Of a stretch of 64,000 bases of DNA, positions 33,828 to 64,000 are shown one piece after another; position 1 is the stretch's first letter; the number at the start of each line of letters is the position of its first letter. Under the pieces are notes generated by a model, which worked only from the letters and a program-made list of their open reading frames with translations, searched no databases and was not told the origin of the DNA. The translations under genes were made by a program, and so were the position numbers. This DNA is from an uncultured Planctomycetia bacterium. Its GTDB lineage: Bacteria; Omnitrophota; Gorgyraeia; Tantalellales; Tantalellaceae. The stretch covers positions 25,258 through 89,257 of the forward strand of contig CAZNEE010000003.1 in assembly GCA_964572255.1 (NCBI GenBank). The letters run 5' to 3'.

Positions 33828-33840
33828 ATCCTTTCTTTTT

Positions 33841-34713: not shown

Positions 34714-34726
34714 ATTCTTCCTATTA

Positions 34727-35839: not shown

Positions 35840-38800
35840 TTATGCTGACAATAGAAGCTGTCTTCTAGTATGAAGCCTGTCTTCCTTAAAAGGCCTTATC
35901 GGCATATTAAGCATAACGTTCCTGATAAGGAATAAAAGGTGCCCAAAAGCCTGGGCCTTAAGTTCTTCAGGAAGAATTTTCATGGCTCCGCTCGAAATTT
36001 CCTTGCGCGGCAGCATAAAATATAATGCCTCTCTTTTCATGGATCTGCCTGTCAACTGCTCTATGAATTTCTGAAGATCATCGGCAGCATTGCCTTCGTC
36101 TTTCTTGCTGATGTCTTCAGGCGTCACCGCCGCCAATAATATTGCCGTTCCCTCCACTTCTCTGGTGAAGTACCATCCTTTACCCTCGAGATCTTTCTCC
36201 TGATCGATATCCGGTATGACCAGTATTCTTATGTTGCCCTCCTCAAGCATCTCTCTGACTTCCGGATTTGTGCTGTTAACCGCATCCTGGATGTTGGCTT
36301 TAGTGCCTACCAGAACATTTATCTCGTCATCTTTCAGATCCATTTCAGCTACCTTATCAAGCCCTAACTTTGCCTGATAAGTCCTGATGGTAATGTTAGG
36401 ATTAACATTTTCTCTTAACTGCTGCTGCTCCCATTTATGCGAGCCCACATCATTTGAATCATCTCCCGGCGCGAACATCTCAACAGGCTGGATCAAGTTT
36501 ATTGTCTTGCCGGCCGTGACCGAGACATGTTTTCTGAGATTTTCATACGATGTATATACTATATTCTCATCTCTTGTTTTTTCATACATCACTTTAACTA
36601 CGGCACGTTCCGTTCCGGTTTCAGGCTTTATTATATAATCCTGATCCTGCGGTATATTATACTTACCTATAGCCACCGGCTCTATGGGTGTGCCTTCCGG
36701 CGTCTCTACTTTTATCTTACCTTTTTGAACAATCAGACTGTGAGCTCTCGCGGCTAAAATCTCCGGCCTCCCAACAGGTTTTATGATATCGAGTCTGTCA
36801 AAAGTATCGCCGTTCTTCAAAAACACTATTTTTTCCAGCCATTCAAATTCATCTACTGCAGGCACCTCGGGCCCTTTAGCCATAGGTTTCGGGAATTCAC
36901 GCTCTTCCAGCTGCGGCGTGAAAACATCGACGATCTTTGTTCCCGCCTCGGCTATGATCTTATAACCACCGGCGCTCGCAGGCACGAACAACATGCCTTT
37001 CCCTGGAACGGCGCGCGGTATATGATAAGCTGTGCCATCTACTCCTGCCACGCTGGCTTCGCCGCCCTCAATGAGCCAAAATCTATGCAGGCTGGCAATA
37101 TCGGAAACTTCTATTACGCCTGATCCGGTAAAAGTTATTACATGCGCTTCCAAACCCTTGCTTTCAAAATTGCCCGGCATGCGTTCGATCTTGTATGTAT
37201 CAGTAGCCTCGATAACTTCCATGGACGTTATCTTGCCGACCACCGGTATAGATTCATGGATCCTGTCAAGATCAAGACCTTTTTTAGCTTCGGGATACCA
37301 TGAACGATACCTTAATCTGTCAAAATCATCAGTTGATTGAGTCGTGCCGGGGATCTGCGGCTCTACGACCGTGACTCCCGGACCAAGAGCATGCAGCATC
37401 CCGGCTTTTACGGGAATAACATCGCCCGGTTTCACTTCAACATAGTTGTAAAATTTTTCCATCTCATTCCGTAAAACTTCTATAGTTTTTATATGCACAC
37501 CGAGATGTTCGTTTTTAGGCGAAGAGGCTCTTGCCATTCTGGCGACAGGAAGGACCCTGCCGACTTTCTCAAGCTGTTTTTCATATCCCAAGTGTACGAG
37601 AACTTCGTAAAGATCTTTTAATTTACTATCGTACGCATTTGCTATGTTCTGATAAGCCTCGCTGACGCCGATCTTTTGGCCTTCGTGTTCCTCTATTGCT
37701 TCTTCGCTGAAACCGAATATGATCCTGGCTCCCTCTTCCGCTTCCGTAACAAGCCAGGATTCATTCTTTGTTTCGTGGAACTGGACTGAAAGCCATTCCT
37801 GCGGTGTAAGGAGTTTTACCAGCGGCATTTCAGCGCCATAATCCATTACGGGTTTTTCGCCAAGTGCTTCTTTTGGAACTTGAGCAATAACACCGAACAT
37901 GGGAGCTGCCTCATCCTCTATTTTCAACAAAGCGGTCTTAGGTGCCATGAAACCGTCCCAATATTCTCCTATTTTGACGCTGACTATCTGATCTTCTCTT
38001 CCCCATTCCTTGGCTTCCCTGTAAGGTTCGCTGTAAACCGGTTTACCTTCTTTAAGCGCAGTAGCTATAAGGCCTTCAGGCGTGTTTTCATCAATTGTCC
38101 TTGCGGCCCAAACGCCGGGTGATTGTGTTTGAGGCGGCGCATCTTTTTTAAGCGCCTTATCGACCATCTTTTGTACGATCGCGACTCTCTTAGCAAGCAT
38201 TTCCGTACAGCGATCCGATGTTTTTGCGCCTACATAAAATCTGAAAATGGGTTCATTGCCCGAAGGACGCAAATGAACAACATCGTCATTGGCGAATGTC
38301 ATCCTTATTCCGTCAATAAGGTTCAACATCACGATCTCATCTTCAAATCCCATTTCGCTTGTGAAATAACCTTTAATGTTCTTTCTGATCTCCAAAAGCT
38401 CATCGAGCTCATCATCTGTAAGTTTATATTCAGCCTCATCTTTATCTATCGCAGTAACGCCTTTTTCGTCATCAAACTTTACCTCACCTATTTTACTTTT
38501 CTTATCTTTCGGAGAAAACATCGCCACTATCGCTTTCCCGACATCAGGAGTATATTCCGGTATTTCCCCTTTTTCAATAATATTGCCGCTCTTATCTTTT
38601 TTGTCGCCTGAAACTTTGCTTGCGTCAGTTTGATAAGAAGCAAGCCTTGAGGCTATGAGTTCTGAAGCTTTCTGGCCCTCAGCGATCTGTCCTATAGCAA
38701 GAAGAAGCGGAAGCGCGGCATCCCGTGATGGGATCGGAAGCAGTTCTTTATTGCCTCCGGGGATCTTGAAATTGGTTGCCGTGAGAAAACCTCCGTTCGA

Positions 38801-41800
38801 TTCCCAGCTGATAACTTTTGCTTTCTTCTTGTCTTTATCGGAAAGCGGAACACGATAATCATTCATGGCTTTAATGACATACGGCGAACCGATCTTTGTT
38901 CTTTTCACTTTTATTTTTTTACCTTTAGCGGATTTCATGTTTTTAAGATCTTTAACCATCTCCGGATTAGCGCTTGTGGCTATCGCTATAAAGTCCGGTT
39001 TTAGAAACTGTGCGGCTAAAGCGCCGAGTTTATCGCCCGGCAGGAAATTCCCGTTCTCATCCGCGAAAAGAGGCCTGTCAGAATCACCGTCTGTTGAAAT
39101 AATAACATCCGGGCTATACTCCTCTGCAAACTGTTTAAGAAGATCCCTTGTTTCGTCCGAAAGCTTTTCCGTATCAACAGGAATAAATTTATCATCACTT
39201 CTTTCAACAGGTATAATCTCAGCACCTAAAGCCGCCAATATTTTCTCTAATATATCCCTGCCGACGGCTGAATGCTGGTAAAGCACTATTCTTTTGCCTT
39301 TCAAGAAATCTGCCGGGAATGAATCAATATAACGCTGTATATAAGCTTCTCTTGCCTTCTCATTCACGGATTTAAACTCGGCAGGAGCCATCTTAAATAT
39401 GCCGTCTCCGCTGAACTGGAGTTCATCCCAGTCTTTAGCGTATATTTTCTTTCTTATATTTTTAACATTCGCAAGAATGCCCGCCTCGTCGTCTTTTAAA
39501 ACCTCGCCGTTTGGTTTGACGAACTTGATCCCGTTCCTATCATCGGGAATATGGCTTCCTGTTACCATGATACTCGCGCGTCCGTTCTGCATCCCCCAGT
39601 AAGTAATTGCAGGCGTCGGCAGTTCGCCGCAATAATCGACCGCGCAACCCGCCTCTTCTATAGCTTTAGCGACCGCTTTAAGGATCCTGCCGGTACTTGA
39701 ACGGCGGTCTCCGGCGATGGAAATGGTATCGCCGCGTTTTATATCCTCAGAATTTATAAGATACTCGATGTAACCGCGTGTGTTGATATAACACTCCATG
39801 TCGGTCATATTAACGACTTCATCCCTCAACCCGCTTGTCCCGAAGGTGAGTGTTTTAAATTTTTCCATTTTTTCATCAATTCTTGCGATCTCCCCCAGCG
39901 CTTCCTGACGTCTCCTTTCGAGTTCTTCCATGCTTACGCCCGCCATGACCTCATGCGTTTCTTTGAATGACAATTCATTGTTATATATAGGTACATTGTA
40001 AGTGTTATTTTTATCTCTCAGATTGGTGTCTTCGGAAACCATCATACCGACAGGCCCATTATCTGTCAAGACAGTTCCATGCCTCATTTTTTCATCAAGC
40101 GCGAGATCATCCAGCTTGCTGCCCAACGATTTATAGATACCACTATGCTGGTTTAGAACAGTTTTTCCTGTTCTGGAACTGGATACAGCAAAAGAATCCG
40201 TTATCTCCACATCCCCAAGCGTGGAGTCCTTAATTACACTTCCGTTTACTTTGCCCGCACCCGTGATCTTGCTGTTTATGATAACGGAATTTCTGACCTT
40301 AACATCTTCGCTTATCTCTGAATTAATTATGATATTGCCGTTTGCATCCCTTACTCCGGAAATACCTTCGATCTTACGCGCAACAATGCCGTCCGGACCG
40401 TCGTCATTTATAGCCAGATATTTTTCTCTCATGGCTTCATGCTGACCTATATCGGGCCAGTAAACATTATCCCCGAGATCGAATATTTTTAGACTTAACT
40501 CTCTGCCGTATTTTTCTTTGAATATTTCTTTTACTCTTTGCACTTTTTCAAAGAACCAGGGAACCATCTTAACAAGTTCCTCTAGTTTTCCGTCAGCTTC
40601 AACAGCCTTGCCCCACTTATCAGTATCATTATCCATCGCAAGCGCCATCAAAAAATAAGGATCAAAATCAAAATATACTCCATCCTTTTTTATCTCTTTA
40701 TCAAAAACCTCTGAAGCGATGTCAAGCACATCATATGACACGGCTACAGGCCCAAGACTTATGCCGACTCTATCCGAATCAATGCCAAGCTCCTGCATTT
40801 TAGCTTTCAGGTCTTCGCGCAAAGCCTCAGCTCCATTCGGATTACGAGCCACCTGCGCCAGCATGTTGCCTTGCTCGTCAAAAATAACCCAATCCTTTTG
40901 CTTCGCTTTTTCATCGGAGATCTCATCAAGTTCCATTACCGAAACAACTTTCATCACGTCTCTTTCGGCCAGCGATTCGCCTTCTTCCGGGGCCGCAAAA
41001 AGATCGACCGAAGCGACCTGGGTTTCATCTCCCCATTTATCAAGTATGCCCCTGAATCCTCTTGCCTCAAGATATTTAGCCACAGGACCAAAATACAAAA
41101 GCGCTTCCTCAATGGCTGATATGGACTCTTTGGATCCATCAATATCCATGCTTGCCGCGGTGGAAGCGATAGCCGGTTTACGCACAGCCTCTACATCCGT
41201 AAAAGGCGACATCCTCTCGCCCTGGCCGAAAAGCATGCCTATTAAAGTCACATAATCCCTATAATTGATCTTAGCTTTTTTAGCCGCTTTTTTAATGTAG
41301 TCATAAGCGAGCAGTGTGCCTAAAAAGTTCCCCTCTCTTGTCTTTTTTTCTATTTTTCCTTTTTTTGTCTTTGTTTCTATTTGTTCCTTCAACGCGAGCA
41401 TCAAAGTGCTGTTATCGCTGTTAAACAGGCTTTTGGCCGTCTGGTCAAACCTTTCCTGCCAATCTTTTTGGTCACGTTCCATGGAAACAACAGCGACGAT
41501 CTTCACATTATCGTTCGCTTTAATGGCTTTATGAGTGTTGTCTATATTTTGAAGATTTGTCCTAAGCCCGGAATTTTCAGCTATTAATCTCTCTTCGTCC
41601 AACTTCGTCCTTTCTTCAGCTTCTTTTTTCCTTTTTTCGCCTATCTTTCGGCGTATGTCCATGATATTGACTTTCTCACGGACTTCCTTCTCTGTCATCC
41701 CATATACTATATGATAAATTTCGTGTAATGCCAAGCGCTGAATTTCATCCTCTGTCAGAATTTCGAAATCTTCGGCATCCATGTACATGTTAGGGGTCAA

Positions 41801-44128
41801 AGATGTGTGGCCCGGAAAACGTCCGGGATGAGCTATCAGGTCGAGCGGGATCTTATCTTCGTCATTTTCGACCGCTTCATTGAATTTTTCATATATTTTC
41901 AACAGCCCGGGGATAGAATATAACTTGATGCTGATATCCTTGACCGTATGGTTCTTGACATTTACATCGATTTCCTGAACATCATCATCGTACCCCAGGT
42001 CCCGGCCAAGGCCCTGACTTAACATGCCGCCGAGCACAACATTAATATTTTTATGCTGTTTATCGGTAAGAGCTTCTACCCTGACAAGAACACTCGCGGC
42101 TTCATTGCCCGGTGAAAATCTGTTCTTGAATACCACCCTTATAACATTTTTGGTCGCTTCGCTGAGCTCATGTCCTGTCCATTCAGCACTGATCTCGCAC
42201 TTACGGATGTATGCTTTTAAAATATCTTTCCATTCATCCGACGCTTTCTGCCAAACTCCCGGATCGGCGTTCTTCTCTACTTCTTTAAGCCATTCCTCCA
42301 CCAGTTTTATTACCACACCGTCATGGAAGTCTTTGGCTATTTTTTCATAAGGTATAACTTCTTCGCCGGCCTGCTGCATCTTTTCATAAACATCCTTGAG
42401 CTCCTCGTCTATTTCTTTAAGCTGATCAGGATGTTCAAGAAAAAGCGGTGTAAGATAGACCGCTCTCATCAAGGGGTTCATCATTCCGCTTTCCGGCTTG
42501 GCAACCTCTTCACTTGATTTTTTGACGTCGCTCATGCCGGCTATCGCGGCGCTTTCAGTGATAATATCTTCAATGGAAGTTCTCTGGTTAGTAAGTACTT
42601 TTATGTAAGGAGTTTCAACATCTTTTGTGATCTTGGGAGTAATAACAACGTAAGATATGCCTTTTTTCTCGAGTATATCTTTCATGCCTCTTGTGTGGAA
42701 CCCTCCAGCTATCATGACACATGCATTTTCTCCGGATTTTTCCATTTCCTTAAGGGTGTTCTCGATCAGTACATTGTCTCTTTTCATCGCTATCTCGTAA
42801 AAACTTACCATGTCAGGAAGATTTTCACTGACCTGAAGAGGTATCCCGTTCAGGGAATAATTCAGCGCATATTTATTGCACAGATCCCCAATAAAAGCGG
42901 CAACGTCATCTAGAGTAAATTCATCCTGATATTTTTTGAAAGTGTCATAATCGCCGTTGGTAAGTTCGATATTCACAAGATCCAGATACAGATCGATCAT
43001 GTGCGCGTATTTATCAAGCGTTCGCTGCGCCTCATCGGTAAATAATTTGTCTTTGATCCTTGTTTTCGCGATCTCTATCTCATGAAAAAGCCCTTCATTA
43101 TCGATCATGTCATAAAGTTTGGTGTAAAGGTAATAGTAAAAAAGATTGGGATATTCCTGGACTATCGGCAGATTATGTGTTTTGGCAAGTTCTCTTAAAT
43201 AAGTGTAAAATTCAACCGCCTTTATGTGCCCCTTTTTGAATCTTATGCTCTCTCCGACAAGCGCTGTCATCTCTTCTTTGGTGAGTTTATCGCTTAAAGC
43301 GTCGATATAACGGCTTCTTTCCTGATCGACTATATCAAAATCTATTTTTTGTTCATATTCCAGAGTCTCTATGAGCTTTTTTAAATTGGCAAGATCTTCC
43401 AGTTTAACGCCTTTTTTCGACGCATTCTTATAGAGATAATCCGCGAACGCGCTAAGTTCCAGTTCCTTTTCTCCAAACGCCGTGATTCTCTGGTCAAGCT
43501 CTTTTAATTTTGGAGGATAAATAATTGATTTGAGCCTGCTTACTACTGTCTTTAGATCGGTAAAATAATTCTCTATATTATTTTTATGAGGGTAAACTTT
43601 GGTGAAGGCTTTAAGGTTCTTAATGTAATAATCTCTCGTTTCAGCACCGAATATCGTGCCGTTATAATTTGATGTGATCGAATAAAACTCCGTACCGGTT
43701 ATCTCGCCTTTTTTCATGAAATAATCGGCGACTTCCTTGCGGATCTCAGCATCCGGAAAGGCCCTGAACCAGCTTGTATCTACCAGGCCTTCGGCACCTT
43801 CCACTGAAATAACATCAACACCGCATTCGGTATGAAGCTGATCGAGCATTTTGTTGATATTGTGCTGGGCTTCATAATTACAGTGGGCATCCTGGATGTG
43901 AATTATGATCTTGTCTGTCTTACCTTCGAATTTTTCCTTAACAATCCCGTAATCAAGAGCAACTCCGATATCCTCAACAGTAAGCTTATCTGTTATCTCT
44001 TGAACTTCGGGCGCGGTTACTTTGTTTTCCGGCACCGTGTAACCGATACTGTAGAAAGAAAATGTAAATAAGACAAAAAATGTCGCAAGTTTAAATAATA
44101 ATGTTTTTTTCATCCCTTCACCAAACAT
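35840..44128 (-). CDS. Giant multidomain protein 1 (2762 aa)
   Basis: Single uninterrupted ORF; the likely start is MKKTLLF at about 44113 after GGTGAAGGG. Domains in order: N-terminal signal/TM; a TraB/GumN/Tiki-like module (nt 42540-43920); a GMP-like nucleotidyltransferase tail (YWPDIGQ) with left-handed beta-helix repeats (about 40200-41000); a four-domain phosphohexomutase (FGTSGLR, TGSHIP, DGDSDR, RPSGNEP; 38200-39845); a type-I mannose-6-phosphate isomerase cupin (GDVIPVKAGMLHALGPG; 36900-37900); and a C-terminal region of unknown function. Confidence 0.75.
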   Translation of the reverse strand: MFGEGMKKTLLFKLATFFVLFTFSFYSIGYTVPENKVTAPEVQEITDKLTVEDIGVALDYGIVKEKFEGKTDKIIIHIQDAHCNYEAQHNINKMLDQLHTECGVDVISVEGAEGLVDTSWFRAFPDAEIRKEVADYFMKKGEITGTEFYSITSNYNGTIFGAETRDYYIKNLKAFTKVYPHKNNIENYFTDLKTVVSRLKSIIYPPKLKELDQRITAFGEKELELSAFADYLYKNASKKGVKLEDLANLKKLIETLEYEQKIDFDIVDQERSRYIDALSDKLTKEEMTALVGESIRFKKGHIKAVEFYTYLRELAKTHNLPIVQEYPNLFYYYLYTKLYDMIDNEGLFHEIEIAKTRIKDKLFTDEAQRTLDKYAHMIDLYLDLVNIELTNGDYDTFKKYQDEFTLDDVAAFIGDLCNKYALNYSLNGIPLQVSENLPDMVSFYEIAMKRDNVLIENTLKEMEKSGENACVMIAGGFHTRGMKDILEKKGISYVVITPKITKDVETPYIKVLTNQRTSIEDIITESAAIAGMSDVKKSSEEVAKPESGMMNPLMRAVYLTPLFLEHPDQLKEIDEELKDVYEKMQQAGEEVIPYEKIAKDFHDGVVIKLVEEWLKEVEKNADPGVWQKASDEWKDILKAYIRKCEISAEWTGHELSEATKNVIRVVFKNRFSPGNEAASVLVRVEALTDKQHKNINVVLGGMLSQGLGRDLGYDDDVQEIDVNVKNHTVKDISIKLYSIPGLLKIYEKFNEAVENDEDKIPLDLIAHPGRFPGHTSLTPNMYMDAEDFEILTEDEIQRLALHEIYHIVYGMTEKEVREKVNIMDIRRKIGEKRKKEAEERTKLDEERLIAENSGLRTNLQNIDNTHKAIKANDNVKIVAVVSMERDQKDWQERFDQTAKSLFNSDNSTLMLALKEQIETKTKKGKIEKKTREGNFLGTLLAYDYIKKAAKKAKINYRDYVTLIGMLFGQGERMSPFTDVEAVRKPAIASTAASMDIDGSKESISAIEEALLYFGPVAKYLEARGFRGILDKWGDETQVASVDLFAAPEEGESLAERDVMKVVSVMELDEISDEKAKQKDWVIFDEQGNMLAQVARNPNGAEALREDLKAKMQELGIDSDRVGISLGPVAVSYDVLDIASEVFDKEIKKDGVYFDFDPYFLMALAMDNDTDKWGKAVEADGKLEELVKMVPWFFEKVQRVKEIFKEKYGRELSLKIFDLGDNVYWPDIGQHEAMREKYLAINDDGPDGIVARKIEGISGVRDANGNIIINSEISEDVKVRNSVIINSKITGAGKVNGSVIKDSTLGDVEITDSFAVSSSRTGKTVLNQHSGIYKSLGSKLDDLALDEKMRHGTVLTDNGPVGMMVSEDTNLRDKNNTYNVPIYNNELSFKETHEVMAGVSMEELERRRQEALGEIARIDEKMEKFKTLTFGTSGLRDEVVNMTDMECYINTRGYIEYLINSEDIKRGDTISIAGDRRSSTGRILKAVAKAIEEAGCAVDYCGELPTPAITYWGMQNGRASIMVTGSHIPDDRNGIKFVKPNGEVLKDDEAGILANVKNIRKKIYAKDWDELQFSGDGIFKMAPAEFKSVNEKAREAYIQRYIDSFPADFLKGKRIVLYQHSAVGRDILEKILAALGAEIIPVERSDDKFIPVDTEKLSDETRDLLKQFAEEYSPDVIISTDGDSDRPLFADENGNFLPGDKLGALAAQFLKPDFIAIATSANPEMVKDLKNMKSAKGKKIKVKRTKIGSPYVIKAMNDYRVPLSDKDKKKAKVISWESNGGFLTATNFKIPGGNKELLPIPSRDAALPLLLAIGQIAEGQKASELIASRLASYQTDASKVSGDKKDKSGNIIEKGEIPEYTPDVGKAIVAMFSPKDKKSKIGEVKFDDEKGVTAIDKDEAEYKLTDDELDELLEIRKNIKGYFTSEMGFEDEIVMLNLIDGIRMTFANDDVVHLRPSGNEPIFRFYVGAKTSDRCTEMLAKRVAIVQKMVDKALKKDAPPQTQSPGVWAARTIDENTPEGLIATALKEGKPVYSEPYREAKEWGREDQIVSVKIGEYWDGFMAPKTALLKIEDEAAPMFGVIAQVPKEALGEKPVMDYGAEMPLVKLLTPQEWLSVQFHETKNESWLVTEAEEGARIIFGFSEEAIEEHEGQKIGVSEAYQNIANAYDSKLKDLYEVLVHLGYEKQLEKVGRVLPVARMARASSPKNEHLGVHIKTIEVLRNEMEKFYNYVEVKPGDVIPVKAGMLHALGPGVTVVEPQIPGTTQSTDDFDRLRYRSWYPEAKKGLDLDRIHESIPVVGKITSMEVIEATDTYKIERMPGNFESKGLEAHVITFTGSGVIEVSDIASLHRFWLIEGGEASVAGVDGTAYHIPRAVPGKGMLFVPASAGGYKIIAEAGTKIVDVFTPQLEEREFPKPMAKGPEVPAVDEFEWLEKIVFLKNGDTFDRLDIIKPVGRPEILAARAHSLIVQKGKIKVETPEGTPIEPVAIGKYNIPQDQDYIIKPETGTERAVVKVMYEKTRDENIVYTSYENLRKHVSVTAGKTINLIQPVEMFAPGDDSNDVGSHKWEQQQLRENVNPNITIRTYQAKLGLDKVAEMDLKDDEINVLVGTKANIQDAVNSTNPEVREMLEEGNIRILVIPDIDQEKDLEGKGWYFTREVEGTAILLAAVTPEDISKKDEGNAADDLQKFIEQLTGRSMKREALYFMLPRKEISSGAMKILPEELKAQAFGHLLFLIRNVMLNMPIRPFKEDRLHTRRQLLLSA

Positions 44129-55877: not shown

Positions 55878-58800
55878 TTACGCCATGATGGCTAACTGTT
55901 CGTATATCTCCTTCTCTTCATCAAGTCTCTTCATGTCGATCTTTTCGATATTCGGCAGATATACGTACCAGCTGTCGTATCCTTGCTTCTGGATGACCCG
56001 ACCCAAACTTGCAGGTATCTTGCCGTCATTGGCTATGATCTCTATGGCTGTAAAGAGAAGCTGTGATACTATTCCGGCACCCTGCATCTGGACATATACA
56101 GGTTTCTCCTGTTTCAGTATATTGAAGTCGGTCTGCGACACCAGGAGATTCTCGGTATCGGCTATAATAACATCGCTTGCATCCTTAACGTTAAATCTTC
56201 CCTTCGCAAGTTCCAAAGTCCTCTCAAGCGTCATGTCCTCTTTAGTCACTATCGTCACATTTGATATATCCAGGTACATATCCAGCTCTGTTGATTTCAT
56301 GGCACCGGCAAGGTTCTTATCGGTTATATTTTCATCCAGGATCCTTACCTGTATGAACTCTGATGCAGCTTCTTTAGTGATGCCCATGTCTTTTATGGCC
56401 TGTCCGATGAACCTCATATCTGCTCCGCTCTTGGCCAGGATGCTTATATAGTTGGCTTCTCCGTCATTTGGCCCTTGAACGGCGTATCTTTCAGCTTCGC
56501 TTGAGATCTCATATCTTGAAAGCACTTTGCCGTGTATATTGTTGAACCTGAGGTCATAGATGTTCTTCTTGGCCACGCCGTAAGAGACCGCCTCAGGCAT
56601 TACTATTGTATAAGCTTCCAATATATTCTTTATCTCTTCTTCCAGCTCGTCGATCTTCTTGAGCTTTTCGTTTATCAGCTGTGTCGTTAAGTTGAAAACA
56701 GCCGGGTTGACAAGCGTGAATACGGCCCTGAGTAAAGGAGCTGCCGCTTCAAGAGATTTTTCAAGCTCCTGGAGTTCTTCCATCTTGCCTGCGATCTCTT
56801 CCGGTGAAAGCTCGAATACATCGGGGTGTCCAAGGACATAAGCGTTCCTTTTAACATCCCGGGCTTTCGTGATAAGTTCAGCCGCGATATCGATCACTTC
56901 CTTGTCTTCAAGATTATCGAAATCGGTATCAAGAAGAACACCGACACCGTTCTTCGCGCTTATGTCTTTTTTCTGCATGAGGACCCTGAGATTTTCCATC
57001 ATCTCTTCTGCATCAGCACCGGCAACTCTCACAACCTCAATAACCCCGTTCATGTCCCTTATTCCCTTTACTATATCTTCTTTGACATCCGCGTTTTCGG
57101 AAATAGCGACTATTACAGGGAATTCCGGCATGGATCCTTTAGTCCTGATGCCTGCCGCGGCAAACGGAGCAAATACACCTATGCCTATGCTTGCGATAAT
57201 TATGTCGATTATATCTCCGTTTGTATCGTACTCTATAGTTTGAATAAGAGTGCCTGTATCGTCATATTCGTATTGAAAATGCACCTGCTGGGCATCCGGA
57301 TCGGGATAATACTCAAACGTCCTGTAAGTGTTATCGGGCCTTGTTTCCTGCTGGAGCCTTCCGTACCACTCGCCTGTATCCGGATTCTGGAAGAAATCCT
57401 CATCTATGTGAAGATATACCGTACCGTCCGCAAGGGTTGTTGTCTCGACACGGCCTGACGGATAATAGGTATATAACCTGTCCGCTAAAAAGTCCTGCAC
57501 GTTATTTATCGAACCGTCATTGTTATATTCTATGATCTTGACAAGCGTGCCGTCGGCGGCATACTCCCTTTCATACTGTTTCTGGGCATCATCCGGAAAC
57601 GGGAAGTATTCGAACGTCCTGTAAGTGCCGTCGGTCCTTGTCTCCCGCTGGAGCCTTCCGTACCATATGCTCGTATCGGGATTCTCATAAAAATCCTCAT
57701 CCAAATATCTATGGATCGTTCCGTCGTCAAAAGTCGTGCTCTGAATGCGTCCTGAAGCGTAATATGTATATATCTGATTTAACGTAAGGTCCTGCACGCT
57801 GTTTATTGTTCCGTCCGGATTATACACGATCACTTTCAGGAGATTATCGACCGCATCGTATTCTCTTTCGATATAGATCTGGTCAGTTCCTACATAGTAT
57901 TCAAATGTCCTGTAAGTGTTGTCGGGCCTTGTCTCCCGCTCAAGCCTTCCGTACCAGATCCCTGTATCCGGGTTCTGATAGAAAGCTTCATCCATGTGAA
58001 GATATACCGTACCGTCCGCAAGGGTTGTTGTAGCAATGAGGCCTGATACCGGATAATAGGTATATACTCTGCCCGCCAACAGATCCTGCACGCTGATTAT
58101 CGAACCGTCTGTATCATACTCGGTGATCTTGACAAGCGTGCCGTCGGCGGCATAATCATACTCGAAATGCGCCTGATGGGCATCCGGATCGGGATAATAT
58201 TCAAATGTCCTGTAAGTGCCGTCGGGCCTGTTCTCTCTTTCGAGTCTTCCGTACCAAACTTCCGTATTCGGATCCTGGTAGAAAGCTTCGTCTATGAGTA
58301 TATGTACGGTGCCGGCCGCTATATCATCAGTCGTACCGAAAACCAGGTCAATACCCGGGTCATCAACATGGTAAGTGATACTCTGTATGCGCCTTGAACC
58401 AAAATAATACTGGATCGTCCTTTCATGCGTACCACCAGCAGTATATAAGTTTTCTTGGTATATATGGTCGGTCCTTTTGCCCGTAGTAGGATGACTGTAA
58501 TATGTAAATGTATTATAAGTACCGTCCGGATTGATTATCTTTGTAATCCGGCCGTATCCGTCATTGTAGAAGTCATAGTCTTCACGGTAGATAACGGTGC
58601 CGTCCGGATGTTCTTCCTTTCTTACCAGGCCGGAATCGTAAAGATGGTACGTGATGCCGTTTTCCGTGAAAGTCTTGGCTTTCCACTCACCGTAATCTCC
58701 ATCACAACCGAACGGGAACGGTGCTCTACCGTCTCTCATGATCATTGCCGGAGCTACGATGAAGAAGTAAACTATTAAGAACAATCTGCTGAGAGTCCTT

Positions 58801-61800
58801 GTCGGGTTGCCGCTGGTTTTAGCGACTTTGTATATCGAATATCCTAAAAGACTTACGCCGGCAATACCTAAGCCTACGTACCATGAACCGGCAAGCACGG
58901 CCGCTGTAACACCTGAGATCGCAGCTACCGCCGCAAGAAATCCAACACGCACAGATCCTTTCTCGCCAGCTTTTGCATCCGGGCTCGTTTCTGTCTTTTC
59001 CTCAACCCTTCCGTACCGGTCGCCTGTATCCGGATCCTGGTGAAAATCTTCATCTTTAAATTTATAAGTTGTCCCGTCCTCGATCTCTTCCTTTTCCTCT
59101 TTTTCTTTTTCATCCATCTTTTCAAGCTGATCCAGGGTCTTTATGAGGAGAGATCTTCCTTCGCCTGAATAGATATCATAACCGAGATCCCAGATCTTCT
59201 TTATTCTTTTCTTAAGCTCATCTGCGGATATCTCCTCCGAAGCGAGGATGTTCTTTATATATTTCGGAGCCTCTTCGCTTGTGTTGACCCCTATGATCTT
59301 TAAGATCTCCTCTTTTGTCTCGGCTCTTGCAACCTGTTCCTCTTTCTCTAAAGGTATAACAGCTTCGGCGCCGGCTTCCTTCAAAAGCGCGATGACCTTG
59401 TTTTCTATATCCTTCTTTAAAGCGTTATAGCTGGCTTCCGACATCGTAAGGTTCTTCAGGTTGCCCAATATGACAAATTCCACCGGATATGTCTTATCAG
59501 AAAAAACCTCCAGGAATCGCTTCTGCGTCCTTGTATTGAACGCGACCATGTCATCTTTTCTTTCGGCGATCCTATCAAGCTGTTCCGGTGTCTTTGAAAG
59601 AAGCGTTCTTCCTTCGGCTTTTTCGTATATCTTGTAGCCAAGATCGGCTATCTTTGTTATTCTCGTCCTCAGGTCATCGACCGTGACCGCATCTGAGGCC
59701 AGCAATTCCTTGATGTAATTCGCGGCGTTCTCGCCTGTCTCTATCCCCAAATCCTGGAGGACCTCTTCTTTGGTCAGTGCTCCTTCAATAAGCTGTACGG
59801 CTTCTTCTTTAGAGACATATGCATCTTCTTCGATCATCTTGAATGCCGGGACCCGCTTATCAAGTGAAGGTCCCTGCTGAATGCGCGGAGCTTTGACCTC
59901 CACATATCCTTCATACTTTCCTCTGGTGTATGTGCCCACGCCTATCTTTATCTTGACCCATTTAACTTTGGACGGATCGAACCGGCTGTCTTCCTTGACC
60001 TGGGGCTTGATCCTCAGAATAACCCATTTGTTGACGTTGTCCCTGTCGATCTCGATAACGTCGCCGTAATCTTCCTCGTAATCTTCGTCAACGGTAACAA
60101 CATGCATCCAATTCCTCTGGCCGTCCAGATCATTAAGGAATGATTCAGGGACTCTGACGAAACAGATATATTCTTTACCGGTCATGTCGATAGAAGGTTT
60201 GCCAAAATCATAAGTAGCATAACCGGCTCTTTTCTCTTCGTCTGCGGCATCAAGTTTCACTTCCAGCTTGAACTTATCGCTCGCCGTCGTGGTCACGATG
60301 CTTGAGACAGCTTTATCGCCTTCGGTGGAATTTGTCCAACCGCTTGCGTCTAAAGTATTTGTGATATTGATGTCCAGCTGTTCATTAAACTTCTCGCCCG
60401 CTTTTATGGATTCCATGAGTTCTGACACAGCGCCCACAGCCGTAGAGTACTGGCGTTCCGCTTCGGTCCTTGTAATATTGCCTTCGAGAAAAGTATGGTC
60501 GACCCTTTCTAAAAGAAGCTTCCTGAAATCCTCAAGCGCCATGTTGAGTATTTCCCACTGGGATTTTGCATACTCGGGATTCCTGTTTACGTTCTTCTTA
60601 CACTCTTGTGCCTGGGAAATTATCCATCCCATATAATAGCTTGTGGATTTTCCCGTAACTTTGAGAACCAACATGTCTTCCCATGTCCTCAATCCTTCTT
60701 GAGTCCTTCCTATCGCGTAGTCTTTATTTTTCTGGGCCTTTTCAATATATTCGATCTCCTCCGGAGAAAGAGCTCTCTGATTTCCGATGCCGAACCTCAC
60801 TCTGGCGGCATCCGTGGAACCCTTGCCTTCAATGTAGGCATCGACGTAGGGCTGGACCTCCTGGCCGTATTTGAGATCCATGTATTCGTTCACAGACCAC
60901 TTATATCCCGGCCAAAGCGCAATAATATAGAAAGGTATGAATATGAACATTATCCACAACCAGCCTCTTTGGCCCTGCCATTCTTTTTCCTCCATGAAAT
61001 AATGATTTACAGAATTGGTCCATTTGCTGATTTTACCCGGCACATCTTTCAGCCATCTGAATGTAATGATGCACCATAAAAAGCTGAATGAGCCTTTAAG
61101 CCTGTCGGTTATTTTTTCAGCAAAAGACCTTTGTTTGATCAACTTTTCGACCCTTTTCAGTTCTTCTTTAAGATCATCTATCAGATCTTGGGTTATGCCC
61201 TCATAAACGCCTTCCGGCACAGCGGTTCTCTGCTCGAGCTTACGTAAGCGTTTTTCCAGAACTTTTATGGCTTTCTTGTTATAACTTATGTCGCCGAAGA
61301 ACCCTCTTACTTTATAGACTTCGTTAGCGGCTACCGCGGCTTTTATGTTCGCGAATTTATTCCTTACCCTCTTCATCATTCTTTCTGAGAATGTCTTGCT
61401 TATACGCACCTTCTGGGCGCCTAACTCTTTCTCAACCGGTGTATGGCTGGTCTTGGGCCAATAGCCGTCATCGACATCCTTGCTTAAGATCTGGTGCAGT
61501 GTGATGATGGACGACGGTAAAGCGTTCAGATAATACTTGGGAGTAAAGAATGCGTTCAAAGTGTAATACAGCCTGTAATACGCGACGGAGCCGACCTTGA
61601 GCCCCAGGTATCTGTCAAGTATCCTGCCTAACCACGGGATCCTCCCCATCAAGTATAAAACGGTCGTTATCGCATAAAGCGCGCATAAGGTGCCGCCTAT
61701 ACCCAAAAGGGCTATTGAGGCGAAAAGGCCTACAGGCCCGAACATCGCTATCAGGAAAGTCGTGTACTTTACGCCTAAAAAGAGCATGATGCCGCCGTAA

Positions 61801-64000
61801 AATGCCGGCCTCCATATAAGGTACACCTTTCCTTTTAATATCCTGTCATTTCTTTTAAGCGTTCTGTTTATCTCTTTTCTGACCTCTTTGAGGAGTACGA
61901 TCATCTCCGGATCCTGTTCCCTGTTAGAATTGCTTTTGCTAAGTTTTTTATCGATAAGCGCGATGATATACCTTGCCACGCTTTCTATTTCTTCGTAAGG
62001 AACAGTGGTTTCCTCTTTTGACTTGTTCTTCGCTATGATGCGCTTTAGAGATTCGACCTTGTAATTATCATCTTTTAAGATATACGGCAATATCTTGTTC
62101 TTTTTGGGCCTGGTCGGATCGCTTTCCCAGTCTTTATCCGCAAGATGCGATAAAGTATCCTTCAGCCCCTGGCTCAGTCCTTCTCTTATCAGTGCATCGT
62201 CATCCGGTGCTTCCTTTAATGTCGCGATCACGGCCATGACGATCTGAATTACCGGAAAAAGAACGAACAGGACAACACCGACCAAAGTTGTCGGGATCCA
62301 TCCCAGGACCTGCGGAATCACCGTCTTGAGCCATACCGCGAGAGAAGCCAGCATCGGGCCTATACCGCCCATGTTGGGTAAAATGGGGAATATCGTTATG
62401 GCCAGAAAGTAAGCTATTGTTATACCGAATGTTACGGCCGTAAAGAGGCCCATCGCCTTACCGCTTATAAGGTACACTGAATGGAAAAAGTTTATCGGGC
62501 CCATCTGCCTCACGGCGTCTCTCTGCCACTCTTCATTCTGTACCAGCGGTTTCATGCCTTGCGTCATGCCGAAAAGCTGGCCCAATGCCGTCCCGATAAG
62601 GCCCACTAATATAGAGCCGCCGAGAACGGCCAAAAGAGCGCCTAATACCGGAGCGAGGCCGATCGAAGCTATGGAAGCAACGCCTGACAATGCGGCAGTT
62701 ATAGCCGGAGCGGCCAATGTGTGCCCCAGAAAACCTCCGATGACGCCGAACACTGTACCGGAAACCACACCGGCAGCATTTAAACTCCAGCTTATCAATA
62801 ATCTATTGACGGCTCTTCCTAATTTATAGAACATGTAGCCGCCCAGGACAAAACCTATTAATGCGGCTATGATGCCTACTCCTATCAGGCCGGGTCCGCC
62901 GAAAACAGCCCAGGCCCATCCGGCAGCCAGATGTGCTCCCCACAACAACCATGCTGACGCTATGGACGCAATGATGACTGAAAGTGTCTGGAGCGTCTTC
63001 CAGCGTGAATCCTGCTTCCACCAGCCTGTTCCCTCCGGAGGCCTTGCATCTTCAAATGTCGAGGACCTGAATCCCAGAAGCCTGTAAACCCTCATACCGA
63101 CAACATCAGAGCCCGGTTTTGCCACAAATATAACGCCTGCCACAAATGCCATGCCGGCTCCAAGGATAACGAACGCAGGCAGTGAGATGACGCTTGAAAC
63201 AGCTGCCGCAACAACGGTAACCTGTGTAAGCAGGTACAATATCGATCCTATGAATCCGGAAAATATTAAACCGCCTAAAAATACGCCGATCTCATGCCAG
63301 AAGCCCTTGCCCAATCCGGGTAAGCCCTTTTCGCTTGCGTTCTGTCCGTGATCAGAGTCTTCGATAATGTTATATTGAGGATGATATCCCAAATGGCTGA
63401 GCCAGTTAAGATAATCCCGCAGCATTCTCTTTGCCGCGGCCATCTCCTTCTTCTCTGATCCTGCGATAAGCTGCTGGCCGCTCTGCTGCCTTTGCAGCCT
63501 TCTTTTTATCTCGACGATCTTATGGTCAAATTCGGCACGTTTTACATGGCCGTCCCGAAGCCTTCCATCCTGATCGGCAGCGGTCTTATGGCCGGTATAC
63601 ATATCCCATCTGAAAGTATTGGTCGTGCCGCCGAGGAAGAACACCGGCGAATATTGTATCCAGCCGATCTTCTTGCCTATGACCGCGCCTATAAATCCGC
63701 CGACAAACCCCGAAATTATAAGCCCTAAAATGACTGCTCCAGGCGGTGTAATGGCCGCGCCGAACAAAGCACAGCTTATAAATGCGCCTGTAACAGCGGA
63801 GACCAGGCCCATTATTACGGCAAGAGGCGTACGATGCGCCACTAACCCGTCCTGGACATCTTTCCATGTACGATAGTCCAGATTAGAAAGGGTGTTTTCC
63901 TGGAAAGGCAGAAGGTGCTGAACTCCCTGTGTGATCGCGGGAACGCATCTTACATCAAGTTCGCTCTTCACATACACATCCTCATCATGATATATGGATA
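55878..64000 (-). CDS. Giant membrane protein 3 (at least 2699 aa, N-terminus probably outside window)
   Basis: The reading frame stays open to the window edge upstream of the listed GTG start. It has more than 12 glycine-rich TM segments in two clusters, coiled-coil regions, and four tandem 100-aa repeats with YD/RHS-like spacing (TYRTFEYY ... EYDxxGTL). Confidence 0.7.
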   Translation of the reverse strand, partial: SIYHDEDVYVKSELDVRCVPAITQGVQHLLPFQENTLSNLDYRTWKDVQDGLVAHRTPLAVIMGLVSAVTGAFISCALFGAAITPPGAVILGLIISGFVGGFIGAVIGKKIGWIQYSPVFFLGGTTNTFRWDMYTGHKTAADQDGRLRDGHVKRAEFDHKIVEIKRRLQRQQSGQQLIAGSEKKEMAAAKRMLRDYLNWLSHLGYHPQYNIIEDSDHGQNASEKGLPGLGKGFWHEIGVFLGGLIFSGFIGSILYLLTQVTVVAAAVSSVISLPAFVILGAGMAFVAGVIFVAKPGSDVVGMRVYRLLGFRSSTFEDARPPEGTGWWKQDSRWKTLQTLSVIIASIASAWLLWGAHLAAGWAWAVFGGPGLIGVGIIAALIGFVLGGYMFYKLGRAVNRLLISWSLNAAGVVSGTVFGVIGGFLGHTLAAPAITAALSGVASIASIGLAPVLGALLAVLGGSILVGLIGTALGQLFGMTQGMKPLVQNEEWQRDAVRQMGPINFFHSVYLISGKAMGLFTAVTFGITIAYFLAITIFPILPNMGGIGPMLASLAVWLKTVIPQVLGWIPTTLVGVVLFVLFPVIQIVMAVIATLKEAPDDDALIREGLSQGLKDTLSHLADKDWESDPTRPKKNKILPYILKDDNYKVESLKRIIAKNKSKEETTVPYEEIESVARYIIALIDKKLSKSNSNREQDPEMIVLLKEVRKEINRTLKRNDRILKGKVYLIWRPAFYGGIMLFLGVKYTTFLIAMFGPVGLFASIALLGIGGTLCALYAITTVLYLMGRIPWLGRILDRYLGLKVGSVAYYRLYYTLNAFFTPKYYLNALPSSIITLHQILSKDVDDGYWPKTSHTPVEKELGAQKVRISKTFSERMMKRVRNKFANIKAAVAANEVYKVRGFFGDISYNKKAIKVLEKRLRKLEQRTAVPEGVYEGITQDLIDDLKEELKRVEKLIKQRSFAEKITDRLKGSFSFLWCIITFRWLKDVPGKISKWTNSVNHYFMEEKEWQGQRGWLWIMFIFIPFYIIALWPGYKWSVNEYMDLKYGQEVQPYVDAYIEGKGSTDAARVRFGIGNQRALSPEEIEYIEKAQKNKDYAIGRTQEGLRTWEDMLVLKVTGKSTSYYMGWIISQAQECKKNVNRNPEYAKSQWEILNMALEDFRKLLLERVDHTFLEGNITRTEAERQYSTAVGAVSELMESIKAGEKFNEQLDINITNTLDASGWTNSTEGDKAVSSIVTTTASDKFKLEVKLDAADEEKRAGYATYDFGKPSIDMTGKEYICFVRVPESFLNDLDGQRNWMHVVTVDEDYEEDYGDVIEIDRDNVNKWVILRIKPQVKEDSRFDPSKVKWVKIKIGVGTYTRGKYEGYVEVKAPRIQQGPSLDKRVPAFKMIEEDAYVSKEEAVQLIEGALTKEEVLQDLGIETGENAANYIKELLASDAVTVDDLRTRITKIADLGYKIYEKAEGRTLLSKTPEQLDRIAERKDDMVAFNTRTQKRFLEVFSDKTYPVEFVILGNLKNLTMSEASYNALKKDIENKVIALLKEAGAEAVIPLEKEEQVARAETKEEILKIIGVNTSEEAPKYIKNILASEEISADELKKRIKKIWDLGYDIYSGEGRSLLIKTLDQLEKMDEKEKEEKEEIEDGTTYKFKDEDFHQDPDTGDRYGRVEEKTETSPDAKAGEKGSVRVGFLAAVAAISGVTAAVLAGSWYVGLGIAGVSLLGYSIYKVAKTSGNPTRTLSRLFLIVYFFIVAPAMIMRDGRAPFPFGCDGDYGEWKAKTFTENGITYHLYDSGLVRKEEHPDGTVIYREDYDFYNDGYGRITKIINPDGTYNTFTYYSHPTTGKRTDHIYQENLYTAGGTHERTIQYYFGSRRIQSITYHVDDPGIDLVFGTTDDIAAGTVHILIDEAFYQDPNTEVWYGRLERENRPDGTYRTFEYYPDPDAHQAHFEYDYAADGTLVKITEYDTDGSIISVQDLLAGRVYTYYPVSGLIATTTLADGTVYLHMDEAFYQNPDTGIWYGRLERETRPDNTYRTFEYYVGTDQIYIEREYDAVDNLLKVIVYNPDGTINSVQDLTLNQIYTYYASGRIQSTTFDDGTIHRYLDEDFYENPDTSIWYGRLQRETRTDGTYRTFEYFPFPDDAQKQYEREYAADGTLVKIIEYNNDGSINNVQDFLADRLYTYYPSGRVETTTLADGTVYLHIDEDFFQNPDTGEWYGRLQQETRPDNTYRTFEYYPDPDAQQVHFQYEYDDTGTLIQTIEYDTNGDIIDIIIASIGIGVFAPFAAAGIRTKGSMPEFPVIVAISENADVKEDIVKGIRDMNGVIEVVRVAGADAEEMMENLRVLMQKKDISAKNGVGVLLDTDFDNLEDKEVIDIAAELITKARDVKRNAYVLGHPDVFELSPEEIAGKMEELQELEKSLEAAAPLLRAVFTLVNPAVFNLTTQLINEKLKKIDELEEEIKNILEAYTIVMPEAVSYGVAKKNIYDLRFNNIHGKVLSRYEISSEAERYAVQGPNDGEANYISILAKSGADMRFIGQAIKDMGITKEAASEFIQVRILDENITDKNLAGAMKSTELDMYLDISNVTIVTKEDMTLERTLELAKGRFNVKDASDVIIADTENLLVSQTDFNILKQEKPVYVQMQGAGIVSQLLFTAIEIIANDGKIPASLGRVIQKQGYDSWYVYLPNIEKIDMKRLDEEKEIYEQLAIMA
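57150..58500 (-). repeat. Four tandem about 300-bp coding repeats inside giant gene 3
   Basis: Near-identical DNA blocks (for example CGAACGTCCTGTAAGTG..GTCGG.CCTTGT.TCC.GCTGGAGCCTTCCGTACCA) recur at 57311, 57611, 57911 and 58211. They encode the repeat DE(A/D)FYQ(D/N)P(D/N)T..WYGRL.RE.R.D.TYRTFEY. Confidence 0.8.

Follow-up and report, generated by a model that had tools for sequence, protein, structure and literature searches.

A 64,000-nucleotide stretch of DNA from an uncultured bacterium (contig CAZNEE010000003.1, positions 25,258 to 89,257; hereafter the window) ends in three giant genes, G1, G2 and G3, all on the minus strand (Table 1). We show that G1 and G2 begin with the same module, which marks a very large protein family almost specific to the phylum Omnitrophota and characterized by a strictly N-terminal leader with variable cargo behind it, and that the G1 cargo is a set of predicted enzymes of activated-mannose synthesis whose synteny with a mannan importer is conserved. 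In the interpretation that we favour, and consider probable though some way from secure, this is a long-protein locus typical of the Omnitrophota lineage, its proteins are targeted by the Sec pathway to the cell envelope, and G1 is tied to the mannan system. Every named homologue belongs to Candidatus Omnitrophota or to a metagenome-assembled genome (MAG) mislabelled 'Planctomycetia', which bears out the guess at Omnitrophota made in a preliminary description of the bare sequence. The nearest relatives are Candidatus Tantalella remota and Candidatus Makaraimicrobium thalassicum; Makaraimicrobium has been treated among the acetogens of Gorgyraia and Velamenicoccia (Seymour et al. 2023).

The preliminary description had reported three co-directional open reading frames (ORFs) filling 28 kb, and their positions and spacers proved exact in the ORF listing: 213 bp between G2 and G1 (21.6% GC) and 322 bp between G3 and G2 (35.4% GC). 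The size of the array was underestimated, however, as the figure of 28 kb holds for the window only. There, the ORF of G3 counted from its first GTG (55878..63977, minus strand) encodes 2,699 amino acids, with 0 in-frame stops between 63977 and 64000, so that the frame is open to the window edge. In the source contigs G3 is called as a 9,042-residue gene, of which the window holds the last 30%, and its translation runs on upstream of the window in one of the retrieved loci (L004). Once the full G3 is counted, the array measures about 47 kb. Approximately 1 in 20 codons would be a stop at 44% GC, which would make chance ORFs of at least 2,700 codons impossible. The base composition and skews of the G1–G3 region resemble those of the rest of the window. 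BLASTP revealed two regions common to pairs of giants, namely the N-terminal module of G1 and G2 and a C-terminal module of G2 and G3.

Giant genes can arise artificially when chimerism, collapsed repeats or overlooked frameshifts join ordinary genes into strings, and two observations are compatible with such an artefact: all of the sequences are of metagenomic origin, and one orthologue (L007) is split into several ORFs. The latter lies on a contig of 2.27x long-read coverage, and its breaks are consistent with the errors of low-coverage long reads. Full-length identical proteins were found on eight contigs for G1 and on seven for G2, including ENA ERZ27256770 and ERZ27256783, JGI 3300029267 and Logan SRR14699969, and thus in at least four independent assemblies and samples. 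Orthologues of full length exist in many species; in one of them (L011), a single tblastn high-scoring segment pair spans residues 1–2761 of G1 at 49% identity. Tandem Repeats Finder detected no DNA tandem repeats in the G1–G3 region, ruling out collapsed repeats. Relatives of the G1 N-terminal module are encoded at 425 loci in GTDB species representatives. Eighty of these were retrieved, and there the module is usually found at the start of an unbroken ORF of 2,300–3,900 residues; dozens of species carry such ORFs with the same leader. Together, these results make an artefact exceedingly improbable and effectively exclude chimerism, collapsed repeats and hidden frameshifts as the origin of the giants. 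The contiguity that the preliminary description had asked to be checked is thereby confirmed, and the giants are genuine.

The homology between the N termini of G1 and G2, also noticed beforehand, was readily reproduced by BLASTP (G1 residues 6–523 against G2 residues 2–521, 29% identity, E = 1e-70). An exhaustive profile search with this module, for which there is no Pfam model, returned 10,145 cluster representatives, 7,050 of them at E = 1e-30 or better. Among the best 150 of the 10,145, the module starts within the first 62 residues in 149, typically occupying residues ~10–530, on proteins of 0.5–5.6 thousand residues; the sole exception has it at residues 187–663 of a 699-residue protein. 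As the module never lies deep inside a long chain in this set, we rejected the idea that a super-giant with leaders inside it was split into the three genes. Nearly all of the 80 retrieved GTDB loci are from Omnitrophota, and in most the module is fused to 2,000–3,300 residues of cargo. Members further removed stand alone as genes of 520–570 residues. Some stand-alone leader genes directly precede long genes; in one locus (L008), a 512-residue one lies 20 bp upstream of a 2,792-residue gene.

The N termini of the family look like classical Sec signal peptides. A signal-peptide-like N terminus or hydrophobic core was found in 174 of 211 members, with AXA-type c-regions being common. The cores are short (10–15 residues) and preceded by a positive n-region; the mean charge is +2.9 before the core and −0.4 after it, and the predicted orientation is N-in for 171 of 190 N termini. 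Long cargo genes that stand apart from the leader are likewise signal-led.

Three further observations were made on leader genes in other genomes. In L008, a related metagenome contig, a 2,218-residue gene resembling SpvB/TcdB/RHS/YD-shell toxins (positions 1–773 of that locus) lies about 9 kb upstream of the stand-alone leader gene. Six loci hold at least two leader-module genes within 10 kb (for example, L010, 1526–10098), each then followed by a signal-peptide-led gene, which suggests tandem arrays of leader units with or without cargo. Last, leader-module genes occur in a record labelled Actinomycetes (JAJCYG010000042.1) and in many 'uncultured Planctomycetia' binchicken MAGs; given their 60–69% identity to Omnitrophota proteins, these records are probably Omnitrophota contigs that were wrongly labelled or binned.

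An alignment of G1 and G2 with 37 homologues (39 sequences) has nine invariant residues: Q79, D80, H82, Q88, E110, G111, G475, G476 and H478. An AlphaFold 2 (AF2) model of the module, with a predicted local distance difference test (pLDDT) score of 87, comprises an N-terminal helix, a disordered linker and an alpha/beta core (residues ~60–165 and 465–500) that is interrupted by a helical insertion of about 300 residues. In this model H82 (in QDAH), E110 and H478 (in GGFH) follow the strands 74–80, 106–109 and 469–475, respectively. We take the order strand-QDAH, strand-E, strand-GGFH to be the two-His-plus-Glu pattern of the Tiki/TraB/ChaN/EreA superfamily, and the module does have two xxxH motifs after beta-strands and a conserved Glu. 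By contrast, comparison with Pfam PF04187 gave only E = 0.12–0.15 at the GGFH motif, below the cut-off, so that membership was not reached at the sequence level, and Foldseek with the whole leader, dominated by the helical insert, found no significant match. With moderate support, the core can be considered Tiki/TraB/ChaN/EreA-like, and H82, E110 and H478 would correspond, by motif order, to the catalytic positions of the superfamily. Compared with the Tiki, TraB-PrgY, ChaN, GumN and erythromycin-esterase families and with the related RRSP and HopBA1, the leader differs in this insertion, in its sequence and in its strictly N-terminal position on proteins of 0.5–5.6 thousand residues.

Approximately 270 residues after the module, G1 carries the motif HEIYH within a domain of about 150 residues, and an HExxH motif occupies the same place in 52 of 121 long proteins led by the module. 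The alignment of this domain shows invariant P107, G108, H141, E142 and H145, with H106 preceding in at least 90% of the sequences, and its profile matches the minimal metallopeptidase selecase (MJ1213, 4qhi; E = 8e-4). Like the minigluzincins, of which selecase is one, G1 has a short HExxH domain; it differs from them in being embedded in a long protein, in its additional conserved HPG motif and in the marginal level of the match.

The cargo of G1 includes a mannose cassette. Its first block has no Pfam match. The AF2 model of residues 840–1425 (pLDDT 91.7) matched, by Foldseek, the GDP-fucose pyrophosphorylase half of FKP (9iit/9iis, E = 1.6e-10) as well as ADP-glucose pyrophosphorylases and GMPPA/B, at a probability of 1.00. 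The motif LFGQGERMSPFT is invariant in the alignment of this block and represents the nucleotidyltransferase signature, so that both the fold and the GxGxR(L/M)xP(L/F)T signature of nucleoside diphosphate (NDP)-sugar pyrophosphorylases are present. The second block is an alpha-D-phosphohexomutase of the phosphoglucomutase/phosphomannomutase (PGM/PMM) type with all of its phosphoserine, Mg, sugar and phosphate loops (Pfam PGM_PMM_I, E = 1.5e-19; PGM_PMM_II, E = 1e-13; domains III and IV weak; NCBIfam Arch_GlmM, E = 3.5e-45). The third resembles type I mannose-6-phosphate isomerase (PMI), for which the matches are each weak and concordant (NCBIfam manA, E = 3.5e-4; Pfam PMI_typeI_cat, E = 0.008; PDB 1qwr, E = 0.03); the metal-ligand motifs SVQFHE and HALGPG were read from the translation. 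In searches against PDB and Pfam by sequence, the C-terminal third of G1 gave only such weak PMI-like matches. The label of a nucleotide-sugar synthesis giant, given to G1 in advance, is thus well chosen, owing to its FKP-like fold, PGM/PMM domains and weak PMI matches.

With PMI-like, PMM/PGM and NDP-sugar pyrophosphorylase domains on one protein, G1 would cover the whole route from fructose-6-phosphate through mannose-6-phosphate and mannose-1-phosphate to NDP-mannose. The three enzymes are counterparts of ManA, ManB and ManC of GDP-mannose synthesis, and the best fold match of the pyrophosphorylase is half of the Bacteroides FKP. In contrast to these proteins and to the PMI-GMP enzymes AlgA/XanB, G1 has all three enzyme types on one chain, behind a signal-peptide leader and with about 1,300 residues of unassigned sequence, and its pyrophosphorylase is from a family without a Pfam model. 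Stand-alone homologues of this pyrophosphorylase, of about 550 residues, occur in Omnitrophota, some Spirochaetales MAGs and Pacearchaeota. In an observation on the side, four stand-alone proteins from Spirochaetales MAGs and from Pacearchaeota (DPANN archaea) show 35–47% identity, suggesting that the family moved between uncultured lineages.

G1 is directly followed by a mannan-utilisation operon encoding two ABC permeases, a GH113 protein with an F5/8-C domain, two CBM27/mannanase-GBD proteins, a second GH113, a ROK kinase and a solute-binding protein. Six other species have this permease pair and GH113 behind the cassette, whether it is fused or separate, with permeases that are 66–86% identical across these loci (76–86% in five), while full-length G1 orthologues, such as those in L011, L022 and L024, are about 45–50% identical. 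No other functional linkage in the region is as strong as this one between the G1 cassette and the mannan ABC-import/GH113 operon, and it falls outside the coordinates of the preliminary description. In eight loci, the cassette (query residues ~840–2400) is a separate gene that comes after a shorter leader protein, and in L022 it is present twice. The cassette being fused in some species and separate in others, shuffling between leader and cargo genes appears to be ongoing. The G1-type C-terminal region is found in 24 orthologous or paralogous ORFs and is always C-terminal, even where the interior is shuffled. A relationship of this region to the C-terminal module of G2 and G3 was considered and dropped (hhalign probability 0.2%), and we take them to be two different modules.

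G2 combines the leader with a kinase. An acidic low-complexity stretch separates the leader from two zinc ribbons, which correspond to an internal repeat (906–953 against 981–1028 by self-comparison). The kinase domain (Pfam Pkinase, E = 1e-58; NCBIfam PknB-type, E = 2e-95) has the VAxK, HRDxK and DFG motifs of Hanks-type enzymes and, judged by these motifs, appears active. Of the approximately 1,850 residues after the second transmembrane (TM) segment, most are unassigned; they contain a second set of HEAT repeats (residues ~1901–1956) besides that in Table 1. Tiles of G2 searched by sequence against PDB and Pfam yielded nothing more than weak matches to nucleoside diphosphate kinase (NDK): the motif near the C terminus scores E = 0.0045 with the NCBIfam NDK model, and its top PDB matches are all NDKs at only E = 0.07–0.8. 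NCBIfam matches to MADS6 and BREX PglW involve the kinase domain only and are far below cut-offs. As in PknB/PknD-like receptor kinases, a kinase domain is joined by a single TM helix to a predicted extracytoplasmic repeat sensor, here of the TPR type; G2 differs in having about 1,085 residues of leader and zinc ribbons ahead of the kinase, a second TM helix and its long C-terminal part.

G3 is a polytopic, sequence-orphan membrane protein. Its part in the window has at least 15 strongly hydrophobic segments in a hydropathy scan and a soluble stretch of about 650 residues, which agrees with the label of a membrane scaffold given to it beforehand, as the domains of G2 agree with that of a kinase/TPR giant. 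For the 3,225 available residues there was no homologue at E = 1e-5 or better among 5.8 billion proteins, the 5′ peptide of L004 had no relative in a scan of metagenome contigs, and there is no Pfam match on record for the whole 9,042-residue product. Long Omnitrophota proteins are mostly sequence-unique (Nielsen & Lui 2026, bioRxiv 10.64898/2026.06.07.730766), and G3 fits this pattern. Its repeat units are 55–68% identical by self-comparison (Pfam DUF2963, E = 1.4e-8) and, from the flanking TM segments, are probably extracytoplasmic. G3 was also considered as an Rhs/YD-repeat polymorphic toxin and rejected, because only DUF2963 and weak MORN_2 matches were found, with no RHS_repeat or toxin domain, and because its C terminus is the module shared with G2 and not a toxin domain. 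Readings of the locus as a non-ribosomal peptide synthetase or polyketide synthase, an Rhs toxin or a defence system were similarly discarded, as supporting domains were not found.

The C-terminal module of G2 and G3 (BLASTP E = 5e-7; about 400 residues in the alignment) recurs at the C termini of genes upstream of leader genes in at least ten other loci and is the only part of G3 that recurs in other loci. Sequence searches returned no PDB or Pfam relative of it. In G3 it is predicted to be cytoplasmic, judging by the charge that follows the final TM segment.

The preliminary description had treated the three giants as one functional unit, which is not supported. Consensus matches to sigma-70-like promoters, each 11/12 and the basis of all promoter calls here, lie in both spacers and before the permease operon, and a strong terminator-like hairpin follows G3 (−30.8 kcal/mol, z = −5.2, with 0 of 200 shuffles as stable by RNA folding). 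Given the spacer promoters and the hairpin, G1–G3 are probably separate, or at least separately promoted, transcription units, and the permease operon is probably also promoted separately. The synteny varies as well: G2-orthologous pieces lie upstream of G1 orthologues in five loci, and a G3-type C terminus directly precedes them in two. A further sigma-70-like match (11/12) falls within G1 itself, a short way upstream of its PGM/PMM domains (40041–40069, minus strand); it could be due to chance or be the start of a cargo-only transcript.

The favoured interpretation can be put in four steps. Sec would target the G1–G3 proteins to the cell envelope, where G3 would act as a membrane-embedded scaffold or adhesin with surface repeats and G2 as a membrane-embedded, TPR-sensing kinase. 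At the envelope, mannose that is imported or captured would be turned by G1 and the adjacent mannan system into its activated form or into fructose-6-phosphate, and the two hydrolase-like domains of the leader region may anchor the long chains or mature them proteolytically. Anchoring or maturation of this kind has been proposed for the C39/S8 peptidase domains of larger Omnitrophota giants (West-Roberts 2023, bioRxiv 10.1101/2023.11.21.568195).

Several points weigh against this interpretation. G1 is signal-led and has no other TM segment, yet its chemistry requires cytoplasmic nucleotides, and only one of 48 stand-alone homologues of its pyrophosphorylase has a signal peptide. The signal-like N terminus of G2 would put the kinase outside, whereas the charges around the TM segment at residue 1387 would put it inside, and hydropathy reveals no hidden TM segment between the two. 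An equivalent of the HExxH domain in G2, initially considered, was dropped, as the mid-regions of G1 and G2 lack significant similarity; the selecase match itself is marginal; the nucleotide and sugar specificity of the G1 pyrophosphorylase is a prediction; and the N-terminal 5,800 residues of G3 lie upstream of the sequence analysed. 'Cytoplasmic' enzymes predicted to be outside pose the same paradox in larger giants (bioRxiv 10.1101/2023.11.21.568195; 10.64898/2026.06.07.730766).

This localisation paradox leads to two rival explanations. In one, the N-terminal segment tethers a metabolon on the membrane's cytoplasmic side, where the enzymes, beside the ABC importer, would channel mannose to fructose-6-phosphate or NDP-mannose and the G2 kinase would regulate from a periplasmic TPR sensor. 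Such an arrangement would suit the enzyme types and the zinc ribbons, which are normally cytoplasmic, the missing signal peptides of stand-alone cassette homologues and the synteny of G1 with the importer, and the charges around the G2 TM helices at 1387 and 1864 predict kinase-in, TPR-out and C-terminus-in. On the other hand, the N termini resemble cleavable signal peptides, and the predominant N-in orientation would place the following domain outside. The ChaN, Tiki and PrgY families, relatives of the leader by fold, are extracytoplasmic. We regard a tethered metabolon as unlikely, if still worth keeping in view.

The second rival is that the giants are secreted multi-effector polyproteins, similar to MARTX toxins, that are exported and reach the inside of a host or prey cell. 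With the ATP and GTP available in that cell, the kinase, NDK-like and sugar-nucleotide enzymes would rewire host metabolism, and the Tiki-like and HExxH leader domains would autoprocess the chain into effectors. Delivery of this kind would resolve the presence of nucleotide-dependent enzymes behind a signal peptide and agrees with the conservation of signal-peptide-like N termini across the family, also on cargo genes separate from the leader. Among the nearest structural neighbours of the leader are HopBA1, a type III secretion system effector, and the effector domain RRSP from a MARTX toxin, a similarity at the fold level only. Omnitrophota have been inferred to be host-dependent or predatory (West-Roberts 2023, bioRxiv 10.1101/2023.11.21.568195; Seymour 2023), but no host is known here, and neither a translocation apparatus nor a pore-forming region was identified in the window. 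Moreover, the G1 cassette is conserved beside the cell's own ABC importer and ROK kinase, which argues for self-metabolism, and its stand-alone homologues lack signal peptides. On balance, we consider host delivery distinctly unlikely, and give equally little weight to its wider form, in which the leader (signal peptide, Tiki/ChaN-like module and HExxH domain) would be the mark of a class of over 10,000 exported polyproteins found throughout the phylum. These would carry kinase and sugar-nucleotide enzymes of the 'cytoplasmic' kind to the periplasm-like interface with a host or prey cell, or into such a cell, and would be cut there into separate effectors by the hydrolase domains of the leader. 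If true, this would amount to a MARTX-like multi-effector strategy of ultra-small epibiotic bacteria.

Tandem giant genes are to be expected in this lineage. Omnitrophota are already known for giant multi-enzyme proteins with signal peptides or TM segments (bioRxiv 10.1101/2023.11.21.568195; 10.64898/2026.06.07.730766; Seymour 2023), and as giant-gene loci of such make-up have been described for the phylum, the novelty initially attributed to the giants is overstated. The closest precedents are the Archaeovorin type, whose type protein is from Velamenicoccus archaeovorus (West-Roberts et al. 2023, bioRxiv 10.1101/2023.11.21.568195) and the multi-enzyme cluster class of Nielsen & Lui. With the Archaeovorin type, G1–G3 share the phylum, the membrane and signal association, HEAT, TPR and PGM/PMM-type enzymes, peptidase-like domains near the N terminus and the puzzle of 'cytoplasmic' enzymes predicted outside. 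Numerous TM regions are present too (at least 15 segments in G3, two plus the N-terminal one in G2, the N-terminal one only in G1). Solute-binding proteins, permeases and glycoside hydrolases follow such giant genes (West-Roberts 2023, bioRxiv 10.1101/2023.11.21.568195), as do BPD_transp_1 (two), GH113 (two), SBP_bac_1 and ROK here. However, Archaeovorins are defined by genes of more than 90 kb and proteins of more than 30,000 residues. The genes described here, encoding 2,762, 3,737 and 9,042 residues, are 3–30 times shorter, spread their content over three genes and have a leader with hydrolase-like modules of another kind (Tiki/ChaN/EreA-like plus HExxH). Pfam gave no match to SecA-DEAD/SecA preprotein-binding, C39 or S8 domains in G1, G2 or that part of G3 which the window holds, and did not detect the glycosyltransferases and NUDIX domains of Archaeovorin in the giants. 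A T2SS/T4P-like secretion cluster lies upstream in the Archaeovorin type; the corresponding region ahead of G3 begins about 19 kb beyond the window. G1–G3 are therefore not of the Archaeovorin class as defined, being too short and lacking SecA-DEAD, C39 and S8.

The Nielsen & Lui class is similar to G1 and G2 in having many enzyme and scaffold Pfam domains, none of them dominating, together with a signal peptide and/or TM segments; its topology classes (signal peptide plus TM, and signal peptide only) apply to the giants here, and its PGM/PMM plus ROK sugar module and kinase and HEAT/TPR content recur at this locus. Unlike that class, all three giants fall below its cut-off of at least 10,000 residues, the largest having 9,042 (Nielsen & Lui 2026), and G1 and G2 are under every size threshold of the giant-protein catalogues. 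The leader module goes unmentioned in both Omnitrophota giant-gene preprints (bioRxiv 10.1101/2023.11.21.568195; 10.64898/2026.06.07.730766). As far as checked, four things are new: the strictly N-terminal leader family, with more than 10,000 clusters and no Pfam model; the combination of this leader with a selecase-like domain; the C-terminal module common to G2 and G3; and the fusion of an NDP-mannose cassette whose synteny with a mannan importer is conserved.

Table 1 Features of the giant-gene locus, in window coordinates (aa, amino-acid residues)
Feature	Position	Strand	Description
Mannan-utilisation operon	26905..35726	−	Pfam; directly downstream of G1, own candidate promoter 35698..35726
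Sigma-70-like promoter before permease operon	35698..35726	−	Consensus match
G1	35840..44128	−	2,762-aa ORF: leader, NDP-sugar pyrophosphorylase, PGM/PMM, PMI, conserved C-terminal region
G1-type conserved C-terminal region, aa ~2440–2762	35843..36811	−	24 orthologous/paralogous ORFs
G1 type I mannose-6-phosphate isomerase-like cupin, aa 2046–2257	37358..37993	−	Motifs SVQFHE...E, AGMLHALGPG
G1 PGM/PMM domains I–IV, aa 1428–1979	38192..39847	−	Intact TGSHIP, DGDSDR, ESNGG, RPSGNEP
G1 NDP-sugar pyrophosphorylase and left-handed beta-helix, aa 840–1425	39854..41611	−	Fold match; motifs LFGQGERMSPFT, KWGDE, DFDPY, YWPDIGQH
G1 HPG...HExxH domain, aa ~662–860	41549..42145	−	HEIYH 802–806; putative minigluzincin-like zinc peptidase
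G1 leader, aa 1–533	42530..44128	−	Sec-signal-like N terminus (aa ~1–31), then N-terminal module
Sigma-70-like promoter, G2–G1 spacer	44243..44271	−	TTGACT-17-TATAAT, 11/12
G2	44342..55555	−	3,737-aa ORF: leader, zinc ribbons, Ser/Thr kinase, TM, TPR, TM, HEAT and unknown regions, C-terminal module
G2 C-terminal module, last 420 aa	44345..45604	−	Also in many genes upstream of genes with the N-terminal module
G2 NDK-like motif, aa ~3298–3325	45581..45664	−	PGTLRGDF...NGIH; suggestive only
G2 HEAT repeats, aa 2552–2608	47732..47902	−	Pfam HEAT_2, E = 4e-13
G2 TM (aa 1387–1405), coiled coil, TPR (aa ~1465–1715), TM (aa 1864–1882)	49910..51397	−	Hydropathy, TPR families
G2 Hanks-type Ser/Thr kinase, aa 1086–1348	51512..52300	−	VALK, HRDIKPSN, DFG
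G2 two zinc-ribbon repeats, aa ~920–1031	52463..52798	−	Pfam Zn_ribbon_4, DUF7836
G2 N-terminal module, aa 1–521	53993..55555	−	Homologous to G1 leader (BLASTP; member of the 39-sequence alignment)
Sigma-70-like promoter, G3–G2 spacer	55623..55651	−	TTGACA-17-TATTAT, 11/12
Terminator-like hairpin, then UUUUAU	55718..55769	−	~110 nt after G3 stop
G3	55878..64000	−	C-terminal 2,706 codons of 9,042-aa gene extending past the window
G3 C-terminal module, last 420 aa	55881..57140	−	Homologous to G2 C-terminal module
G3 repeats, about five of ~100 aa	57216..58658	−	Beta-rich, YD/MORN-like (DUF2963), between TM segments
G3 polytopic membrane region, aa 61–1030 (window numbering)	60888..63797	−	At least 12 hydrophobic segments

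The remainder of the window is ordinary chromosome, with genes for Pst/PhoU/PhoRB, a porin, fumarase, AcrB/TolC, SmpB with transfer-messenger RNA (tmRNA), YdjC, GT2, PMT_2 and an M48 peptidase. A YdjC-like deacetylase, a 232-residue GT2 and a PMT_2/GT39-like mannosyltransferase are encoded together (21405–24605, minus strand); the size of the GT2 matches that of polyprenyl-phosphate-mannose synthase and, speculatively, these genes might be consumers of activated mannose made by G1. The only sizeable plus-strand gene nearby (25941–26819) encodes 292 residues without a Pfam match and is flanked by the mannan operon and the M48 peptidase gene. The adjoining tmRNA and smpB genes (20237–20623 and 20625–21083, respectively, both minus strand) are of note for the tag peptide called by ARAGORN, VPQFAGTGPLVSALGY, which lacks the usual ...ALAA ending; either the tag is unusual or the resume codon was mis-called. 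Last, a fluoride riboswitch (Rfam RF01734, 59 bits; 14121–14183, minus strand) lies upstream of a stretch (13351–14121) that has short ORFs only and presumably holds a crcB-type gene.

Giant and long genes fill a large share of the small Omnitrophota genomes, and none has a demonstrated function. The locus described here represents a tractable small version of them: proteins of 2.8–3.7 thousand residues can be expressed, compared with 40–150 thousand for the published giants, and it offers testable enzymatic cargo (PMI, PMM and NDP-sugar pyrophosphorylase) together with a conserved mannan-import partner operon. The main question raised by both giant-gene preprints is whether signal-led enzymes act within the cell or outside it, and the conserved leader could explain how such long proteins are targeted or processed.

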